DNA of 41,909 nt from IMG/VR virus record IMGVR_UViG_3300021387_000133, positions 1 to 41,909 of that record; one strand, given 5' to 3'. Every line of letters begins with the position of its first letter. The first letter of the stretch is position 1. Both the position numbers and the translations under genes were made by a program. Positions 1 to 41,909 of this stretch are shown piece after piece. The stretch comes from a virus. The notes beneath the pieces are model-generated. The model saw nothing but the letters and a program-made list of their open reading frames with translations. It searched no databases and was not told the origin of the DNA.

Positions 1-107
1 GTTTGTTGAAACACTTCAAAAGTTCAACCTTGACGGCTTTCCTGTGCTTCATAATGCTTTATTTTATCAGGGTTTTTTCTGCTGTTCAATAGTTCAGTTC
101 CCACGGG
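1..107 (+). repeat. Left copy of exact 107-bp terminal direct repeat (assembly overlap or att core)
   Basis: Base-by-base identical to 41803-41909 by hand comparison. Confidence 0.95.
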
Positions 108-2768: not shown

Positions 2769-3032
2769 TCAACCCCCAATCAGTTCATACACATCACACA
2801 GTGCCATCTGTGTGTTTGTCACTTCCGTTGCCAGTTCTTCATTCTGCTGCTGAAGCAGTTTGATGTATTCATCCTTGTCATACTCAATCAGGGTGAAACT
2901 GAACCCTTCAAAGGTTTCTTCACCGTGGTCTTCTGTGACCGGCTGAATGTTCTGTGCAACGAAAACCTTTGTTGCTGTGATTTCCACATCAAGCGGTTTC
3001 ACGGTGCTTTGCTGCACTCCATAATTTTTCAT
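2769..3032 (-). CDS. Hypothetical tail-fibre-associated protein (XkdW-like by general pattern)
   Basis: 87 aa and acidic, with a C-terminal helical segment (QQQNEELATEVTNTQMALCDVYELI). Its ATG overlaps the RT stop (ATGA at 3029-3032). The function call is tentative. Confidence 0.45.
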   Translation of the reverse strand: MKNYGVQQSTVKPLDVEITATKVFVAQNIQPVTEDHGEETFEGFSFTLIEYDKDEYIKLLQQQNEELATEVTNTQMALCDVYELIGG

Positions 3033-4156
3033 GCTGCCTTTGCCCCTTTCTTGTTTGGTTCAATGTTGGTTTTATAATATTCATCTGCAAACGGTATCAG
3101 CGGTGTTATATACTTCTTTGTCAGTCTGAAGCTGTTGCAGTGTTTCAACCATCCTTGATATGAATGAATTGAACACCATTCTGAATAGTTCATCATCTTG
3201 CCACTTTCACACTTCTGCCTGATTGCAGTCATTTTCTGTTTCATGGTCATACAGGTGGACTTTCTCAGCAGGACATAATTCATGAATACCCTGTAACCAA
3301 GATAATCAACACCACGTACATAAGACGGGAATATTTGCCAATTTCCTTTGACCTGCAACCGCATATTTTCTTTGAAGTAAATCTTGATTTCTTCAATCAG
3401 CAGGTGCAGTTCTTCTTTTGTTTCCGCAAAAATAACAATGTCATCCATGTATCTGAAGTAATGCTTTACGTGCTTGACTTCCTTCATCCAGTGGTCAAAG
3501 TCACTGAAGTAGTAATTTCCAGAATACTGTGACAAGTAATTGCCTATAGGAATGCCGGTGTTCGGGTCAATGTCTTCTTCAAGCAGGTATATTTCAACCA
3601 AGTCTTCATCATCTGCCGTGTTGATGCTGTCAATAATTTCATCCAACAACCACAACAGATCATGGTCTTTGAACAGCCGTCTGAATTTCTGTTTCATGAT
3701 ATCGTGGTTGATGCTTTGGTAATAATGCCGTGCATCAATCTTCAGGCAGTATTGACACCCTTTCACATCATGCTGCATTGCATCAGTCAGGCGGTTCAGC
3801 CCCTTATGAATGCCCCTGTCAGGTATTGCACTGTATGTATCTGCTATCAGATGTTTGACAATGTACGGTTCAATCACCTGCAAGATTGCCCATTGTGCAA
3901 CCCGGTCAGGGAAATACGGCAGCTTGTAAATCTTTCGGTTCTTGTCTCTTTCCTTCTTGAAAAATACCTCATAATCTGATGTGTGATACAATCGGTTCTT
4001 CAGAAGGTATTGAAGATAATACAGGTAATAGTCAGGGCATTTGTCTATTTCCTTGACTTCCTTGTACCACCCTTTACCCTTCTTTGCGTTCTTATGCGCT
4101 AACCTCAAATTTTCAATATCACAAATTTTATCGAACAGGTTTCCTACACGCTTCAT
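3029..4156 (-). CDS. DGR-type reverse transcriptase
   Basis: 375 aa. The N-terminus (MKRVGNLFDKICDIENLRLAHKNAKKGK) is typical of DGR RTs. It has the IGNYLSQY (IGxxxSQ) motif and the YMDDIVIF catalytic YxDD box. A TR/VR pair with adenine-only differences lies immediately upstream. Confidence 0.93.
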   Translation of the reverse strand: MKRVGNLFDKICDIENLRLAHKNAKKGKGWYKEVKEIDKCPDYYLYYLQYLLKNRLYHTSDYEVFFKKERDKNRKIYKLPYFPDRVAQWAILQVIEPYIVKHLIADTYSAIPDRGIHKGLNRLTDAMQHDVKGCQYCLKIDARHYYQSINHDIMKQKFRRLFKDHDLLWLLDEIIDSINTADDEDLVEIYLLEEDIDPNTGIPIGNYLSQYSGNYYFSDFDHWMKEVKHVKHYFRYMDDIVIFAETKEELHLLIEEIKIYFKENMRLQVKGNWQIFPSYVRGVDYLGYRVFMNYVLLRKSTCMTMKQKMTAIRQKCESGKMMNYSEWCSIHSYQGWLKHCNSFRLTKKYITPLIPFADEYYKTNIEPNKKGAKAA

Positions 4157-4195
4157 TCTCCATCTTTCTGTATGCGTGAAAACCGGGTCTTCAAC

Positions 4196-4223
4196 CTTAT
4201 ACGAATGAGTACAAGTCTACCAA
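4196..4223 (-). promoter_or_regulatory. Putative sigma70-type promoter for the RT gene
   Basis: Minus strand reads TTGGTA (4223-4218), a 16-nt spacer, then TATAAG (4201-4196). It is flanked by the 14-bp direct repeats ATCTTTCTGTATGC at 4162-4175 and 4231-4244. Confidence 0.35.
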
Positions 4224-4319
4224 CACGGCAATCTTTCTGTATGCCTGAACAGTCACCTTTTGGATGCTGCACAGGTCTTTTCTGTTTTGCCAAGGGGCAA
4301 GGTTAAACAACTACCACAT

Positions 4320-4365
4320 TTTTATATAAAAACAGCAGGGACTTTCAATGTCATCCCTGCTGTTT
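4320..4365 (-). terminator. Rho-independent terminator immediately 3' of the DGR template repeat
   Basis: Perfect 12-bp stem (4330-4341 / 4354-4365) with a 12-nt loop. On the minus strand it is followed by TTTTTATAT. Confidence 0.7.
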
Positions 4366-4370
4366 CACGC

Positions 4371-4491
4371 ATTTACTAAGTGACTGCTGATATTCCGATT
4401 ACGATTACCAACACTATTATTCAGATTCCAATAGAAACTGCCTGCATTAGTGCCATTATTCCAATTACTGCCTAATTGAGCAATTCTTTTT
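4371..4491 (-). repeat. DGR template repeat (TR), non-coding
   Basis: 121 bp, collinear with 4621-4741 at a constant offset of 250 bp. It differs only where the TR minus strand has A. It is A-rich, with 11 AAT codons when read in the VR frame. Confidence 0.92.
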
Positions 4492-4551
4492 GTGGTTTCG
4501 TGCAGAATTAGTGATAATTTCAGCGGTTGTTCAACCTATATCTAAACGTGG

Positions 4552-6681
4552 TCAGGCAGCAAGCTGTTCTTCCCACGCATTGATATTTGTCTGATAGTCT
4601 TCTGCGTTCCGTGTCGGTACATACACCAAGCGACCGCCGATATTCCGATCACGATCACCAACACCATTAAACAGATGCCAACAGAAACCGCCCGCACTAG
4701 CGCCATGACTCCAACTACCGCCCAATCGAGCAATACGGTATCCGTTCAGGTCTGCGGTCACATAGTGGTAGTCACCAACCGGCAGTGAACTGTTTCCGGT
4801 GCATTCAGATGCCATGAACAACCAATCACATTTTGTACTGTATCCGATTGCGGAAATATAGCCGTTTGCGTTGGTCACGGTGAAACCGGCAGGTTCATAG
4901 TTTCCGTTGTTCTTACTTTCTGCAAAACTGAAGTCATTGCAGATATACGGCTGACCACCTTCCATGCTGCCATTACCCCACATATTGACACCATAGACAA
5001 ATTTCCAGATGTTACCAAAGAAGTTTTCTTTGCCACGCCACCGCATAGCGGTTTTGTTCGCTGCCGTTTCTGTGTAGGTTGTGCCGTTTCTTTCATTGAT
5101 GGTGCTTTCGGCACGGCCTGTGCCGTTTCCAATGCTTGCGGTACTGCCGGTCAAGCTGCTGTTGTTTGTGGTGTTCGGACTGTCAGAAATGCCGGTGACA
5201 CCTGCACTGATAGCATCCTGAAAGTTCATAGTTCCAAGTTCAATCATCATCAGCAACTGTTCAGCAGATACCAACTTGATCAGATCACCGTGGAAACCTG
5301 AACCCCGGTTCTGTGCCATCGTTTCAACGTTCGGCCTTGTCAGTCCCTGTGTCACACCTGATGCCGGTTTCACCCCGGCAATAGAACTGAACTTGTCCTG
5401 TGCCACCGCCATGACCTGCGCATCATCCGTGATGTATGCATTTTCAGAAACATCATACAGACAACCTTCATACGCACCGGTCAGGAAATAGTCAATTTCT
5501 TCACCGTTCGCATCATAAAAGGCCGGGTGCAGTCTGAACCCGGTACGGGCTTTCTGACTGACATAATAGTTTGCTTTTCTCAGATGGTAACCAATGCCGG
5601 TGTCAATCGGATCATAGTTGACAGGTGCAACCAGATAATAGAATTTAGGCTGATACACCATGACCTGACCCATGCTGCCATCTTCAGCATAATCATTGTC
5701 ACCGTACCAAGCAACAATAGTTCCGTCATCTGCCACGTTGCACAGTCTTCTGCCCCCATACATTGTGTACTGATCAAAGTCAGCACCGGCAGTCTTTCCA
5801 ACCGCACCTGCAAGACGGGTGTATGTCTTGTTCTCATAGTCAACAGACAGACCAAGTACATCTGTTGTGATGCCAAGGTACGCTTCAATATTTGCCACGC
5901 CTGCAAGAATTTCCTGTGCATTGAAGTTTTCAGACCTCAGTTCTTCAAGGTTTGAACTTGCTGAACTGTTTTCAGCCTGCAAAGACTGATACACGGCCTG
6001 TGCAGTTCCTGTTGAAGTTTCAAGGTTTGTTTTTGCGGTGTTAGCAGTCTGAACATCCGCTGCAAGGTCTGTCCGCATCTGATCAGCGGTATCAATGACA
6101 CCCTGCAACTGTGTCTTTGTACTGTTTGCAGTTGAAACAGCACTGTCAAGATTAGACTTGGACGTTCCTGCCGTACTGACAGAATTGTCAAGCTGTGTCT
6201 TTGCCGTTCCTGCTGCCGTGATGGATGCATCAAGGTTGGTCTTTGCGGTTTCAGCATTGGTCTTTGCCGTGTTCGCTGCTGCCGTTGCCGTTTCAAGGTT
6301 ACTTTTCGCCGTGTTCGCTGTACTTGTGGCAGAAGTCAGGTTTGTACGTGCGGTGTTTGCCGTGGTTGTAGCATTTTGAAGGTTGGTTTTCGCTGTGTTG
6401 GCAGTGTTGGTTGCACTGACCAGATTTGACTTTGCCGTATTACCGGCAGATGTGGCAGCTTCAAGGTCAGACGTGACCTGTTCCGCTGCTGCAACCTTAC
6501 CGTCAAACGCTTCAACCTGATCATCAACAGCGTCTTTGGCAGCGATCACATCAGCCTTTAACTGTGCATAGCTTTCATTATCATCATTGACCTTCACCAA
6601 GGCGTTGATGATAGATGAACGGACTTCTTCACCGTACACTGCATTTGCTATCTGATCAGTATAAGGTGTGATATTAGCCAT
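4552..6681 (-). CDS. Tail fibre / receptor-binding protein, DGR target with C-terminal C-type-lectin (FGE-like) fold region
   Basis: 709 aa. The N-terminus carries 14-aa coiled-coil-like repeats. The C-terminal part contains NFFGNIWKFVYG, comparable to the GNVWEW motif of CLec/FGE folds, and the VR-encoded segment GGSWSHGASAGGFCWHLFNGVGDRDRNIGGRLVY. It sits after the baseplate/tail-tip genes. Confidence 0.88.
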   Translation of the reverse strand: MANITPYTDQIANAVYGEEVRSSIINALVKVNDDNESYAQLKADVIAAKDAVDDQVEAFDGKVAAAEQVTSDLEAATSAGNTAKSNLVSATNTANTAKTNLQNATTTANTARTNLTSATSTANTAKSNLETATAAANTAKTNAETAKTNLDASITAAGTAKTQLDNSVSTAGTSKSNLDSAVSTANSTKTQLQGVIDTADQMRTDLAADVQTANTAKTNLETSTGTAQAVYQSLQAENSSASSNLEELRSENFNAQEILAGVANIEAYLGITTDVLGLSVDYENKTYTRLAGAVGKTAGADFDQYTMYGGRRLCNVADDGTIVAWYGDNDYAEDGSMGQVMVYQPKFYYLVAPVNYDPIDTGIGYHLRKANYYVSQKARTGFRLHPAFYDANGEEIDYFLTGAYEGCLYDVSENAYITDDAQVMAVAQDKFSSIAGVKPASGVTQGLTRPNVETMAQNRGSGFHGDLIKLVSAEQLLMMIELGTMNFQDAISAGVTGISDSPNTTNNSSLTGSTASIGNGTGRAESTINERNGTTYTETAANKTAMRWRGKENFFGNIWKFVYGVNMWGNGSMEGGQPYICNDFSFAESKNNGNYEPAGFTVTNANGYISAIGYSTKCDWLFMASECTGNSSLPVGDYHYVTADLNGYRIARLGGSWSHGASAGGFCWHLFNGVGDRDRNIGGRLVYVPTRNAEDYQTNINAWEEQLAA
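4621..4741 (-). repeat. DGR variable repeat (VR) within the tail-fibre gene
   Basis: Matches the TR except for ~27 substitutions by hand count, all at TR adenines. It ends 23 codons before the fibre stop codon. Confidence 0.92.
6016..6459 (-). repeat. In-frame ~42-bp tandem repeats (14-aa units, ...TANTAKTNLxxA...) in the fibre N-terminal shaft
   Basis: About 10 successive 14-aa units are visible in the translation (aa ~75-222). Examples are ATNTANTAKTNLQN, ATTTANTARTNLTS and ATSTANTAKSNLET. Confidence 0.8.
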
Positions 6682-33303: not shown

Positions 33304-33975
33304 TCAGCAAAACGGTAAATCTTCCGGTTCACCGGTTGTCAGTGCTTTAGTTTCCTGAACCTTGCTTGCCCACATATCAGCCCAATGAAGAATAAGCATC
33401 AGCGGTGTTTCATGCCCCTGCACATCATATTTCATAGAACCATACAGGCCGTCATGATACAGAATTGCATTCTGTTCTTCTTCCGTCAGGTCAATGTACA
33501 TCCAAGCAATGATGACTGACCTGATGCAGTGATCAACGTGCAGCAGTTCTTTGTTGATTTCAAAAGGCTTGCTTTCTGACTGCTTATATTTCTGTTCCGG
33601 GCTTGCCTTGGTGGGTTTCCCGTCCTTGATCATGTTCGGTACATAGTACGGTTTGTCAAACTGACCACACTTGCCAAGGTCATGAAGTGCTGCTGCAATC
33701 ATCACACTGTCATGAACCTTGTTGTATTCTTCAGCACCAAACAGGCACAGACCCAACTTTTCAGCATTTTCCATGACGTGCCGGGTGTGGTGTACAAGTC
33801 CATACTTGCAGGACAGGTGAAACTGACTGCTGCAAGGTGCTTCAAAGAACCCGATTTCATCCATGTAGTCAACAAGGTTTTCAATCCCTTCACGCTTGGT
33901 TGCAAGCAGCCTGTCAACCACATACTTTCTGTTATCCAATGTTTCAGCCATGTTGTTATTCATCCTTTCTATCAC
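33304..33975 (-). CDS. HD-domain phosphohydrolase
   Basis: AALHDLGK and additional His/Asp residues. The start codon is uncertain. Confidence 0.7.
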   Translation of the reverse strand: MIERMNNNMAETLDNRKYVVDRLLATKREGIENLVDYMDEIGFFEAPCSSQFHLSCKYGLVHHTRHVMENAEKLGLCLFGAEEYNKVHDSVMIAAALHDLGKCGQFDKPYYVPNMIKDGKPTKASPEQKYKQSESKPFEINKELLHVDHCIRSVIIAWMYIDLTEEEQNAILYHDGLYGSMKYDVQGHETPLMLILHWADMWASKVQETKALTTGEPEDLPFC

Positions 33976-34358
33976 TTGTAAATATCATCAAGTTTCTTGA
34001 ACGGCCTGCCGTTTGTGGTTTCCCAATATCCCGTCATCAGATCACCCTGAAACCGTTCAAACCCTGACGGGTAAAGGAAACACGCATCACCGCCACTGTC
34101 CCTGATCCTGTTGGTATTCAGCTTCTGAAGGTCTGACGGCCTGCCGTGTTGGGCTTTCAGTTCGATTGCAAGGAAGTGACCGTTGATATTCAAGATCATG
34201 TCAGGGATACCGCTTTTCTGATATCCACCACCCCATACCTTGAAATACCAACCAACCGCCTTGACCGTCATCTTGTCTTCAGGAAAACCGGCAGGGTATA
34301 CACCGATCTTGTGCAGCCATTTCTTCAGCCGGTTTTCAAGGTTCTTTTCTTCAGCCAT
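33972..34358 (-). CDS. VRR-NUC domain nuclease
   Basis: GIPDMIL...FLAIELK is a PD-(D/E)xK core. Confidence 0.7.
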   Translation of the reverse strand: MAEEKNLENRLKKWLHKIGVYPAGFPEDKMTVKAVGWYFKVWGGGYQKSGIPDMILNINGHFLAIELKAQHGRPSDLQKLNTNRIRDSGGDACFLYPSGFERFQGDLMTGYWETTNGRPFKKLDDIYK

Positions 34359-34370
34359 CCTTCACCCCCG

Positions 34371-34706
34371 TCAGAACTTCTTGCCGTGCAGATACGGCCT
34401 TGTCAGGTTGAATTCATGCTTTTCCTTGATAGCTGCTTCAAGATCAATGTTGTAGTAGTCAGCCATGTCAAAACATCTGATGACCACATCTGCCAGTTCT
34501 GCCGGTACACCTTCCGGTTTCCCGTCTTCCCGGTAATAGGTTTCTGTTGCAGAATGTCCTGACCGGAATTCTTCAAGCACTTCAGAAACTTCACTGTGAA
34601 TGAGTGCAACAAAGTCCGTGGGGGTGTTGTTCACTTCCCTGAACCCGTGCTTGCGGTTATTCAGACCAACCGCCTTGATGAAGTTCCTGATGTTCAAATC
34701 AGCCAT
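34371..34706 (-). CDS. MazG-like nucleotide pyrophosphohydrolase
   Basis: Trimmed to the ATG at 34706 behind AAAGGAAG. Carries the EVSEVLEE and ELADVVIRC motifs. Confidence 0.7.
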   Translation of the reverse strand: MADLNIRNFIKAVGLNNRKHGFREVNNTPTDFVALIHSEVSEVLEEFRSGHSATETYYREDGKPEGVPAELADVVIRCFDMADYYNIDLEAAIKEKHEFNLTRPYLHGKKF

Positions 34707-34890
34707 TTTTATACTTCCTTTCGTAATAGTCTTCATTCACCCAAAAGAACAGGTACAGCCAAAGAAGGTTAAAGCACAGCACCTTGAAATAAATCCAATC
34801 AGGGCTGTCAATGCAGCAGGCACAGAAGATTGCAGACAGGCCGTTCAACCATGTGATGGTTTTAAGAACTGTATTTTTCAAACAGCGCAT
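34699..34890 (-). CDS. Possible small membrane protein
   Basis: 63-aa hydrophobic ORF filling the junction between the SNF2 and MazG-like genes. It overlaps the SNF2 3' end. Confidence 0.3.
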   Translation of the reverse strand: MRCLKNTVLKTITWLNGLSAIFCACCIDSPDWIYFKVLCFNLLWLYLFFWVNEDYYERKYKNG

Positions 34891-37606: not shown

Positions 37607-37999
37607 TCAATCACCTTCTTTCCTGATAAAATCCAGTTCATAGGCTTTCAGTTCTGTTTCAGTCAGTTCACGGGTGTAAACCAGAACATCATGATATCTG
37701 CCCGTTGGGTCATCCATTCTGTGATGAAACCCCACCAACGGTTGACAACCCGGACTGAACCCACGCAACCGCATACCGTAATAGTAAAACACCTTTTCAC
37801 CTTCTTTCTGAATGAACCTGACCTTGCAGGCCGGTTGGTTTTGTTCCCGTGCTTGTGTATGCTTGCAGATGTACCCCCTTCTGTGTCGGAATGTTCCGGT
37901 TGCTGCAATGTCACACGTTCCCCAAATTTCACTGTGTCTTGTCCAGTGTTGGCAGTCCTTACAGCGTGAAGGACTGCCCCTGATTGTATTGCCGGTCAT
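37607..37999 (-). CDS. Hypothetical Cys-rich protein
   Basis: 130 aa with an N-terminal CKDCQHW...WGTC segment. RBS GAAGGTGA. Confidence 0.55.
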   Translation of the reverse strand: MTGNTIRGSPSRCKDCQHWTRHSEIWGTCDIAATGTFRHRRGYICKHTQAREQNQPACKVRFIQKEGEKVFYYYGMRLRGFSPGCQPLVGFHHRMDDPTGRYHDVLVYTRELTETELKAYELDFIRKEGD

Positions 38000-40342: not shown

Positions 40343-41617
40343 ATGCAAGGATCAGTCAGAAAACGGGGCAATACTTGGTCATACCGGTTTGACCTTGGTG
40401 TGGTTGATGGGAAACGGCAGCAGAAGGAAAAAGGCGGTTTCAGGACAAGGAAGGATGCTGAAGCTGCACTTGCAAAGGCCATGTCAGAATATAATCAGGC
40501 CGGTCTTGTCTTTGAACCTTCAGAAGTGTCTGTTGCTGATTATCTTGACCAATGGTTTGATATGTACTGCACCAATAATCTGAAGTACAACACACAGGTT
40601 GGGTATCTCAGGATCATTGAAGGTCACCTGAAACCGGCCTTTGGTCATTACAGACTAAAGGCATTGAACCCGACCATCTTACAGCAGTATGCCTTTGACC
40701 TGAAAAACAAGGGTCTTGCAAAAAGCAGTGTTGACGGTATCCTGACCACATTTCAGGCAGCACTTGACTATGCGGTTGAACCCCTGCACTACATTTCACA
40801 GAACCCCATGCACCCGGTCAGATATCCAAAGATTGAGAAACAGCCCCGTGAACGGATCATCTTGACCTTGGACGAGTGGCAGCGGATCATTGACCGGTTC
40901 AGGGGTACACGGTATGAAATACCCCTGATGATAGGGTTCTACACCGGTATGCGGATCAGTGAAGTATTTGCTTTGACGTGGGATGATATCGACCTTGAAA
41001 AACGGCAGATCACAACGGACAAGCAGATTGTGAAAAGAAATTTTGGTGCTGATGTTCGCAGGGTGGTTGAAAAGAAGGGCAAGAAAGAACAGCGGTCATC
41101 ATGGTATTTTGAGACACCCAAAACCCCCAATTCAATCAGAACGGTGACTATTGGTGACACACTTTATCAGGCATTGAAGGAAGAACAGAAACGGCAGCGC
41201 ATCAATGAATTCAAGTATGGTGAATACTACACCGTTCATGTGCTGAAGAAAGAAAAGGATGAAAAGAACCGTGATATCTTCCGGGTTGTGCCGGTTCAGA
41301 AATGTGTTGAAAGTCAGTTGCCCCGTGTCAAGATGGTCTGCATTGCTGAAAACGGGCAGTACACTTCAACGGACAGTTTCAAGTATGCTTCAAGGGTCAT
41401 CCACCATGAAATGCAACTTGCCTTTGATTTTCATTCACTCAGACACACCCACGCCACACTGCTGATTGAAGCAGGGGCAGATGTAAAAGACGTTCAGTGC
41501 CGGTTGGGTCATTCCAACATTTCAACCACCTTGAACACGTATGTGCATGATACTGAACAGATGCAGAACAAGACTGCTGATATCTTTGAACAGATCACTT
41601 CCCGGAAAACCTCATAA
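40343..41617 (+). CDS. int: Tyrosine integrase
   Basis: 424 aa with an N-terminal arm-binding-type domain (RKRGNTWSYRF). The catalytic region reads HSLRHTHATLL...GHSNISTTLNTYVH. Confidence 0.92.
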   Translation: MQGSVRKRGNTWSYRFDLGVVDGKRQQKEKGGFRTRKDAEAALAKAMSEYNQAGLVFEPSEVSVADYLDQWFDMYCTNNLKYNTQVGYLRIIEGHLKPAFGHYRLKALNPTILQQYAFDLKNKGLAKSSVDGILTTFQAALDYAVEPLHYISQNPMHPVRYPKIEKQPRERIILTLDEWQRIIDRFRGTRYEIPLMIGFYTGMRISEVFALTWDDIDLEKRQITTDKQIVKRNFGADVRRVVEKKGKKEQRSSWYFETPKTPNSIRTVTIGDTLYQALKEEQKRQRINEFKYGEYYTVHVLKKEKDEKNRDIFRVVPVQKCVESQLPRVKMVCIAENGQYTSTDSFKYASRVIHHEMQLAFDFHSLRHTHATLLIEAGADVKDVQCRLGHSNISTTLNTYVHDTEQMQNKTADIFEQITSRKTS

Positions 41618-41802: not shown

Positions 41803-41909
41803 GTTTGTTGAAACACTTCAAAAGTTCAACCTTGACGGCTTTCCTGTGCTTCATAATGCTTTATTTTATCAGGGTTTTTTCTGCTGTTCAATAGTTCAGT
41901 TCCCACGGG
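41803..41909 (+). repeat. Right copy of the exact 107-bp terminal direct repeat
   Basis: Identical to 1-107. Confidence 0.95.

Follow-up and report, generated by a model that had tools for sequence, protein, structure and literature searches.

The 41,909-nucleotide (nt) DNA of IMG/VR virus record IMGVR_UViG_3300021387_000133 (positions 1 to 41,909; the whole stretch that was analysed, hereafter the window) carries on its minus strand a cassette with the layout of a diversity-generating retroelement (DGR). The cassette consists of a target gene for a tail fibre of 709 amino acids (aa) with a variable repeat (VR) in its C-terminal part, a template repeat (TR) and a gene for a reverse transcriptase (RT). 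It sits in the tail/lysis module, in the order target gene-VR-TR-RT. The fibre open reading frame (ORF) is flanked by the genes of a Prophage_tail/Peptidase_S74 protein and of the RT, and a holin and a CHAP lysin are encoded beyond the RT. The TR, which is non-coding, is located in the 395 nt that separate the fibre stop (4552) from the RT start (4156). VR and TR are separated by 130 nt, and a spacer of 214 nt connects the TR to the RT. A DGR acting on the fibre tip of a temperate phage had been proposed for this DNA in an earlier note. The analyses described below indicate that the locus is, with high probability, a functional DGR without an avd gene that a temperate phage of gut Clostridia carries in its tail/lysis module. 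The coordinates of its elements are collected in Table 1.

Table 1. Elements of the DGR cassette, listed 5′ to 3′ along the minus strand. IMH and IMH*, initiation of mutagenic homing element and its TR counterpart; P1, P2, P3 and P5, predicted helices of the spacer RNA.
Element	Positions	Strand	Remarks
Target gene, 709-aa tail fibre	4552-6681	-	ORF; phrog_5302 'tail protein', E 2.5e-83
VR as first given, fibre residues 647-687	4621-4741	-	Part varying among relatives, 4638-4727
IMH-like VR 3′ end, GCGGTCGCTTGGTGTAT	4621-4637	-	Five differences from TR, fixed in all relatives
Long-range duplex, 5′ strand, AGGTTGAACAAC	4526-4537	-	Just past the fibre stop codon, upstream of TR; pairs with 4301-4312
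TR as first given	4371-4491	-	Homology by repeat search 4370-4484; mutagenic part 4388-4477
IMH*-like TR 3′ end, GCAGTCACTTAGTAAAT	4371-4387	-	Counterpart of the VR 3′ end
P1, 5′ strand, ATGCGTGAA, at TR 3′ edge	4364-4372	-	Pairs with 4172-4180, TTCACGCAT
P2 hairpin, 11 bp (ACAGCAGGGAT / GTCCCTGCTGT, 10-nt loop), then U-run	4332-4363	-	Fold predictions
Long-range duplex, 3′ strand, AGTTGTTTAACC, abutting P3	4301-4312	-	Pairing with 4526-4537
P3 hairpin TTGCC-CCTT-GGCAA (4287-4300), then A-rich AACAGAAAAG	4277-4300	-	Alignment conservation, compensatory changes
P5 interrupted helix, CCGTGTTGGTAG...hairpin...GGTTGAAGACCCGG, with unpaired conserved GGTAG and GTTGAAGA	4182-4229	-	Covariation
P1, 3′ strand, TTCACGCAT, and conserved A-rich ACAGAAAG	4164-4180	-	Alignment; followed by the RT ribosome-binding site
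DGR reverse transcriptase, 375 aa, intact	3029-4156	-	GGAGA ribosome-binding site 5 nt upstream of ATG

A repeat search of the window returned a two-copy direct repeat, 4370-4484 against 4620-4734, of 115 nt with 80% identity and a spacing of 250 nt. The repeats as first given, 4371-4491 and 4621-4741, were compared by script on the minus strand. Over 121 nt, 27 mismatches were counted (TR to VR: A>G 18, A>T 5, A>C 4); template bases other than adenine are never affected. The TR contains 44 adenines and, in the frame of the VR, 11 AAT codons. The gapless pairing at a 250-bp offset, which had been counted by hand in the earlier note, was thus confirmed in all its numbers. The chance that all 27 mismatches fall on 44 adenine positions out of 121 is 1.0e-15; for the conservative core of 115 nt, with 23 mismatches on 38 adenines, it is 1.7e-14. 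Third codon positions carry 6 of the 27 mismatches. Both strands of the window were also scanned with the TR-adenine positions as wildcards, and no third TR/VR copy was found. The template had been described as one that randomises residues by its AAT codons without creating stops. The AAT codons are as described, but two other codons, AAA and AGA, could become stops; they are the only such codons, and both lie within a doubtful A-run at the 5′ end of the TR.

Variation of the VR among natural relatives was followed in a DNA set of ten, comprising the window, L001, L047-L052, L055 and L056; all except the window and L001 were found via an exact look-up of the 87-aa protein encoded next to the RT. 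Across the ten VRs, 26 of the 44 columns at TR adenines are variable, against 6 of the 77 columns at other template bases. The variation is limited to positions 15-104 of the 121 in the TR, which correspond to TR 4388-4477 and VR 4638-4727. Nine relatives (L001, L047-L053) share an identical TR, L055 has one TR base changed, and the TR of L056 is apparently chimeric. An exact search with the TR gave no match in IMG/VR or in JGI metagenome contigs. A complete absence of VR polymorphism across many related genomes, together with frameshifts in the RT, would, by the earlier note, have spoken against a working system; among near-identical genomes the VRs were found to be hypervariable at TR-adenine columns and the TR essentially invariant.

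The same pattern is seen in the proteins. The 90%-identity cluster of the fibre has 31 members, the window protein included, and in the 15 members that were read the differences are concentrated in residues 647-687. Five proteins (P0124, P0128, P0130, P0131 and P0133) share nearly the same backbone substitutions, are 10-15 VR residues off the window protein and differ mutually. At the protein level, VR differences are always found at residues for which the TR has AAT, AGT or a similar codon; GGRLVY is constant. Because genomes with almost the same fibre backbone carry different VRs, the activity appears to be recent; judged from these sequences, VR rewriting is very recent relative to genome divergence. 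Two Logan contigs start at the repeats, L053 right at the VR 3′ end and L054 inside the TR. These breaks fit assembly failure either at VR heterogeneity or at the TR/VR repeat, and they are suggestive only.

The TR of L056 was considered separately. Its 5′ half has 11 A-to-N changes and one T-to-G change (TR ends at ~1478, VR ends at ~1228), and the VR of the same contig retains TR-like adenines at five of the changed TR sites. Most likely the assembly crossed over from one repeat copy to the other; retrohoming into the TR itself is the less likely alternative.

The mutagenised region is shorter than the repeats as first given. In the gapless comparison at offset 250, identity collapses beyond about 4370-4484. 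The outer 7-8 nt at the 5′ end of the TR (4484/4485-4491) form an A-run, because of which a mismatch at A is trivial in this part; its four differences are the same in all ten relatives. The true TR/VR homology probably ends at 4483/4484, as far as the alignment tells. At the other end, the mismatches at TR positions 4373, 4374, 4377, 4381 and 4385, all within the last 17 nt, are likewise identical in all ten relatives, and the VR 3′ end has a higher G+C content than its TR counterpart (GCGGTCGC vs GCAGTCAC). In DGRs an IMH is located at the VR 3′ end and an IMH* at the TR 3′ end (PMC7290462; PMC5758913). By analogy, the five fixed 3′ differences look like those between IMH and IMH* and not like ongoing mutagenesis. 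About nine of the 27 mismatches are fixed boundary differences rather than live mutagenesis. The adenine rule of the earlier note still covers all the mismatches; its repeat limits are probably too wide, and its 27 mismatches include the fixed IMH-like block. A strong Bordetella-like DNA hairpin after the VR was looked for and rejected, since a weak hairpin, GGTG-TATG-TACC, is all that is seen at this place; its conservation is not convincing.

The RT gene matches Pfam RVT_1 (E 3.5e-16) and phrog_1423 'reverse transcriptase' (E 3.4e-112). Among all PDB sequences the best match was 8ub7_A, an RT of 328 aa (E 6.5e-30, residues 2-334 to 3-316). The 8ub7 RT can be equated with the Bordetella phage bRT, because its numbering (I181 and Q187 in PIGSLTSQ; YMDD at 213-216) is as published (PMC7826257; available text of bioRxiv 10.1101/2023.10.23.563531). 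Retron-type and group II intron RTs in the PDB scored weaker (E 7e-11 to 5e-8). The motifs quoted in the earlier note are present, IGNYLSQ at residue 204 and YMDD at residue 236. The signature of DGR RTs is [I/V/L]GxxxSQ, and bRT residues R74 and I181 promote adenine mutagenesis (PMC7826257). Residue 74 of the window RT is an arginine that aligns with bRT R74, and the counterpart of bRT I181 is also present. All NCBIfam matches remained below the curated cut-offs (group_II_RT_mat, 89.6 bits vs 300; Drt3a, 54.8 vs 200; retron St85, 37.6 vs 235). A group II intron, retron or defence RT was ruled out by these sub-cut-off scores, by the absence of intron or retron RNA of Rfam in the window and by the motif IGNYLSQ in place of QGxxxSP. 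The sequence comparisons thus support an assignment of the RT to the DGR type, as had been claimed.

The N-terminal half of the fibre is an Ala/Thr/Asn-rich shaft of tandem-like 42-nt (14-aa) repeats of the TANTAKTNL type. These repeats lie at window 5990-6450 (minus strand; fibre residues ~70-250), and their database matches are of coiled-coil type only. The C-terminal 280-440 aa matched no Pfam or NCBIfam family, even at E 10, and profile searches of PDB sequences with the C-terminal domain yielded nothing beyond noise from coiled coils or low-complexity stretches. When the last 279 aa were searched exhaustively, 1784 clusters at 50% identity were obtained, in which the domain is joined to many different N-terminal regions. 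Residues 431-709 were modelled by AlphaFold2 with 95 clusters as alignment, and the model reached a predicted local distance difference test score (pLDDT) of 96.1 and a predicted template modelling score of 0.90; an earlier model of residues 270-709, built from 38 close homologues, had a pLDDT of 31.5 and was discarded. The top match of the new model in a Foldseek search of the PDB was TaqVP (5vf4; E 4e-8, probability 1.0, template modelling score 0.50 on the query). Weaker matches were Mtd variants (E 0.09-0.6) and Treponema TvpA (E 0.25), and canonical C-type lectins had insignificant scores only (E 1 or higher). TaqVP, Mtd and TvpA are described as C-type-lectin folds in the available text of PMC6328139. 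Among viral models (BFVD), gut-phage 'tail collar fiber' proteins (best E 1e-26) and fibres of crAss-like phages were matched. The stretch RGKENFFGNIW, with GNIWKF at residue 556, is the most conserved part of the family. The VR peptide and the GNIWKF element quoted earlier are both present, and the C-type-lectin-like fold that the latter had suggested agrees with the model, which supports the view that the C-terminal domain of the fibre has a DGR variable-protein fold.

The RNA of the spacer was compared in 16 diverse loci aligned with MAFFT, onto which the predicted helices P1, P3 and P5 of the window were projected. In the window, the 214-nt spacer together with the flank upstream of the TR folds better than shuffles (z = -3.1). 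Over the three helices, 82.2% of the cells are paired, compared with 28-41% when the partners are slid by 1-3 columns. Double-sided changes occur in 18 of the 30 pairs, and the covariation score was reached by none of 500 shuffles. The structure was taken from one aligned sequence, which favours the fraction of cells paired somewhat and affects the double-change counts less. P3 is the most conserved element, with invariant or near-invariant columns and compensatory changes (GC>AU, CG>GC, UA>CG), and it reaches loci with 33% RT identity. A regex scan located it in 38 of the 42 loci having enough upstream sequence. P5 has 14 pairs, nine with double-sided changes and 82.8% of cells paired. For P1 the corresponding values are nine pairs, six with double-sided changes, and 81.7%; these alignment-based counts were used for P1, as RNAduplex z-scores against shuffles are not discriminating on such short strands.

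Two further elements were characterised outside this scoring. The long-range duplex, in which the spacer pairs with the flank that precedes the TR, comprises 12 contiguous pairs in the window and 10-14 in most close relatives, with unrelated partner sequences. Over 22 non-redundant loci it averages 9.5 contiguous pairs, compared with 5.8 after shuffling of the strands, and in most loci examined it stops exactly at the base of P3. P2 was left out of the covariation scoring, as the hairpins of different loci do not align; hairpins of different sequence are found at the same place in L007, L016, L018, L029, L030 and L046. Its 11-bp stem is G+C-rich and is followed by UUUUUAU, so that it resembles an intrinsic terminator. 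A simple scan passed over P2 on account of its 10-nt loop. Judged from its sequence, P2 could give rise to two kinds of transcript, one with the TR only and one that reads through.

In the available text of bioRxiv 10.1101/2023.10.23.563531, the Bordetella ribonucleoprotein (RNP) seen by cryo-EM has a cis-priming TR:Sp duplex and a 'cPRT stop' duplex across the TR, with an adjacent stem-loop and then adenosines, and its RNA bears, immediately past the TR, a stem-loop that binds Avd. The RNA-element survey in that text took in only DGRs with Avd homologues. The spacer elements of the window correspond in kind to those of the Bordetella RNA, from which we infer that they may have the same function. 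By this analogy P1 is a candidate template:primer duplex and the long-range duplex a candidate equivalent of the 'cPRT stop' duplex, and adenosine 4171 is tentatively put forward as the cis-priming nucleotide.

Neither the lack of an avd gene nor the structured spacer RNA had been remarked on in the earlier note. An avd gene is found in about 74% of DGRs and is not strictly defining. In the window, none of the 18 small ORFs matched the Avd family in Pfam or NCBIfam, a test that is insensitive, as the ORFs in the Avd position of L037 and L040 were not recognised either. As the profile test is weak, the absence of Avd rests on the architecture, which was examined in a family set of 45 IMG/VR loci with RTs 29-77% identical to that of the window (nearest, 72-77%). 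In about 25 loci an automated detector found a repeat of ~110 nt immediately preceding the RT, and 93-100% of the mismatches were at adenines of the RT-proximal copy in all of these loci but L018 (80%). Where RT identity is ~48% or more, the VR-TR offset is about 180-272 nt, which is too small for a gene between VR and TR. The more distant loci have an offset of 531-558 nt with an ORF of 117-121 aa in the Avd position, or two VRs. In a published survey, Architecture A, without avd, made up 29% of the DGRs, and a profile search found no remote avd for Avd-less cassettes (PMC5758913).

The 87-aa ORF (2769-3032, minus strand) overlaps the RT stop by 4 nt, and phrog_18126 (unknown function) is its sole match. 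It is found directly behind the RT gene in 32 related loci, the RTs of which are as little as 51% identical. A homologue with 50% identity is kept in L072/L073, where the RT consists of residues ~265-366 only, and in L075/L076 a Phage_XkdX gene comes after the homologue. Phage_XkdX marks the usual small-gene position after tail fibres. No homologue of the 87-aa protein was found in Psychrobacillus phage Perkons or in the loci with RTs <48% identical that keep A-specific TR/VR pairs, and a tblastn search of deposited phages gave none. A role of the 87-aa ORF as a substitute accessory factor was rejected, as it persists beside a deleted RT, occupies an XkdW/XkdX position and is missing from other Avd-less relatives. 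It is best read as a small gene of the tail module and not as a part of the DGR.

Decayed versions of the cassette were also encountered. The cultured Clostridium phage CS266P3 (OP172777.1, 1-540 and 46742-47855; L057/L058) has a decayed version of the DGR of the window. The origin of its record cuts the homologous fibre gene, which is 63% identical; the VR is at ~12-132 and the TR at ~250-370 (104 of 121 nt as in the window TR), P3 is present, and a 13-aa trace is left of the RT. CS266P1, P2 and P4 match the TR DNA at 94-96%. In L072/L073 (3850-4500) an internal deletion joins VR, TR, P2 and P3 to RT residues ~265-366, with the 87-aa gene still next. Truncated RTs of 282 and 320 aa (P0140, P0149) are found in the RT cluster of the window.

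Taken together, these elements suggest the following course of events. RNA from ~4540, just past the fibre stop, to the RT start (4157) would fold in such a way that the spacer, beside a hairpin and adenosines, is paired to the flank that precedes the TR, and the distal end of the spacer to the TR 3′ edge. From a P1-type duplex the RT would copy the TR and misincorporate opposite its adenines. The resulting cDNA would replace VR 4638-4727, guided by the fixed, G+C-richer IMH-like VR 3′ end, and about 20 residues of the fibre C-terminal domain, mostly AAT-encoded, would be recoded, by which receptor specificity may be altered. The priming site, the role of each helix, catalysis independent of Avd and the effect on receptor binding are the parts of this scheme that we infer.

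Several observations weigh against the reading of the locus as a functional Avd-less DGR. The polymorphism is seen between assemblies of different samples and not as heterogeneity of reads within a sample. It is also not purely adenine-specific, as six non-adenine columns of the VR vary too, which fits low-level errors at other template bases or ordinary mutation. At the silent TR-adenine site 4443 (VR 4693; GCA>GCG, Ala) all ten VRs have G. Selection at the protein level is no explanation for this; it suggests context-dependent misincorporation or VRs that are not fully independent rewrites. P2 and its U-run, placed between TR and RT, could end transcription before the distal spacer elements are made. 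No avd gene is present, whereas the only DGR RT that is known to have been characterised biochemically requires Avd. Finally, decayed copies are common in the family, so that some relatives are certainly inactive.

The last of these points raises the question whether the cassette is a fossil, in which the mismatch pattern and the polymorphism record past activity and the window copy no longer retrohomes. Decay is frequent among the relatives, as in CS266P3, in L072/L073 and in the two truncated RTs; incomplete cassettes prevail in crAss-like phages (PMC7290462); and for the window copy the polymorphism is known from between-sample assemblies alone. The RT of the window is nevertheless of full length; it lacks none of the catalytic or signature motifs, and its gene has a ribosome-binding site. 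The TR, the helices of the spacer and the IMH-like end are undamaged and the same as in relatives with differing VRs, and different VRs are found on near-same fibre backbones. A fossil is therefore considered very improbable. Still less weight was given to an ordinary duplication in tandem, in which the 3′ end of the fibre gene was copied and then altered by diversifying selection or by gene conversion, the RT being unrelated. The top NCBIfam match of the RT is a group II intron RT/maturase (E 2.1e-25), followed by the weaker Drt3a, Drt2 and retron RT, and A>G transitions predominate among the mismatches (18 of 27). The NCBIfam scores are, however, far under the curated cut-offs (for the top match, 89.6 bits vs 300), in the PDB the DGR RT leads the best retron-type match by ~19 orders of magnitude (E 6.5e-30 vs 7.4e-11), the motif is IGxxxSQ instead of QGxxxSP, and Rfam recognises no RNA of a group II intron or of a retron in the window. 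Selection, moreover, cannot confine changes to one template base, third codon positions included, and the A-specific pattern recurs in about 25 independent loci. Tandem duplication is effectively refuted by these data.

An active DGR that needs an accessory protein, either acting in trans or unrecognised, such as the 87-aa ORF, or a host factor, is the most plausible of the three alternatives and is still regarded as unlikely. The 87-aa ORF has a 4-nt overlap with the RT and is syntenic in 32 loci, and Avd proteins are poorly conserved, so that the profile test would miss them, as it did the 117-121-aa ORFs of L037/L040. On the other hand, the 87-aa homologue is kept beside the dead RT of L072/L073, precedes Phage_XkdX in L075/L076 and is missing from Perkons and from loci with RTs <48% identical in which TR and VR are nonetheless A-specific. 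None of the 18 small ORFs of the window matched Avd, and the published profile search likewise found no remote avd (PMC5758913). The preferred reading remains that of a functional DGR that lacks avd.

The carrier of the cassette is characterised by an exact 107-nt direct repeat at both ends of the window (1-107 and 41803-41909), which indicates that the contig closes to a circle of ~41.8 kb. Contigs of 41.85-42.17 kb turn up repeatedly across several samples. An integrase (phrog_1, E 1e-79) and two HTH_3 regulators are encoded. The temperate lifestyle claimed in the earlier note was upheld, because genes for an integrase and for repressor-type helix-turn-helix proteins are present. The lysin (159-1898) and the integrase (40343-41617) lie at opposite ends of the contig and are neighbours across the circular junction; in relatives the integrase is found ~340 nt past the lysin. 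The RT is 99% identical to one in an Oscillospiraceae metagenome-assembled genome, and its relatives with 56-78% identity are from other Bacillota, namely Lachnospiraceae, Catenibacterium, Faecalibacterium prausnitzii (chromosomal) and Lawsonibacter. Jointly with the functional Avd-less DGR, a temperate, siphovirus-like phage with a circular genome of ~41.8 kb, infecting gut Clostridia (Oscillospiraceae or relatives), is a reading in which we have high confidence. No Rfam family was found in the window at gathering thresholds, and ARAGORN found no tRNA in it. Small ORFs of the early region on the minus strand (33972-34358, 34371-34736, 37607-37999) have weak to moderate Pfam matches, to VRR-NUC (sub-threshold), a MazG-like family (sub-threshold) and the C-terminal domain of DarA, DarA_C, 'defence against restriction' (E 1.6e-11).

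Among known systems, the locus resembles the Avd-less DGRs of Architecture A1 and lineage 3 (Wu et al. 2018, PMC5758913), with which it shares the order target gene-VR-TR-RT and the lack of avd. The likeness to lineage 3 is one of architecture, RT identity being only about 38-43%. The DGR of crAssphage LMMB, a member of lineage 3, has the same arrangement of target gene, VR with IMH, TR with IMH* and RT, and its target is a tail-collar fibre with a C-terminal VR (PMC7290462). The RT of LMMB is 38.5% identical to that of the window, which is the one indirect sign that the window RT may belong to lineage 3. The fibre domain of the window also matches models of crAss-like phage fibres structurally, and decayed cassettes are frequent in both groups, incomplete ones being the majority in crAss-like phages (PMC7290462). 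The two carriers differ, in that the window is a temperate phage of Clostridia of ~42 kb and LMMB a crAss-like phage of Bacteroidota of ~100 kb. Of the RTs of deposited phages, none is more than 50% identical; the closest is that of Psychrobacillus phage Perkons (49.5%), whose cassette is likewise laid out as target-gap-RT.

With Bordetella phage BPP-1 (mtd-avd-TR-brt) the locus shares the A-specific transfer from TR to VR, a homologous RT and a tail-fibre target with a C-terminal VR. It differs from BPP-1 in that avd is absent, VR and TR are 130 nt apart, the spacer is longer (214 nt) and an extra conserved element, P5, is present, for which no counterpart is noted for the Bordetella RNA in the available text of bioRxiv 10.1101/2023.10.23.563531. 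P2 is placed where the Bordetella RNA has the Avd-binding stem-loop. The IMH-like block is short, the hairpin after the VR is weak, and Mtd is a weak structural match (E 0.09-0.6), TaqVP being the strong one. TaqVP of Thermus aquaticus (5vf4), the best solved match to the fibre domain, is also a DGR variable protein with a C-type-lectin fold, according to the available text of PMC6328139. It differs in sequence (17-18% identity, with no match at sequence level by family profile) and is not a phage fibre. From the tail-fibre DGRs of temperate gut phages in human or animal gut metagenomes, in which the distal fibre domain is diversified likewise, there is no fundamental difference. The locus is a clean new example within the known Avd-less target-VR-TR-RT phage DGRs that diversify fibre tips of C-type-lectin fold.

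No natural system of targeted protein hypermutation other than DGRs is known to us from prokaryotes, and in phages DGRs determine host range. The only mechanistically dissected DGR that we know of needs Avd. Rather than a new principle, the locus offers a very clean and complete example that is apparently active and has natural VR variants in public data; its practical value lies in the lack of Avd. Its covariation-supported RNA map makes the priming and stopping of cDNA in Avd-less DGRs testable with a small construct, and a two-part system could be of interest to DGR engineers in directed evolution. Tentatively, and with more doubt than confidence, it may be considered that the Avd-less clade runs mutagenic retrohoming with RT and RNA alone. 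The covarying P5 (CYGTTTTGGTAG...GTTGAAGAAYCGG) and the hairpin after the TR could in that case replace the scaffolding role of the Avd pentamer. An Avd-free mechanism was merely postulated by the 2018 survey (PMC5758913). If it holds for this clade, the locus would represent a compact two-component DGR, consisting of the RT and about 390 nt of RNA, and would provide a defined RNA model for such a mechanism.

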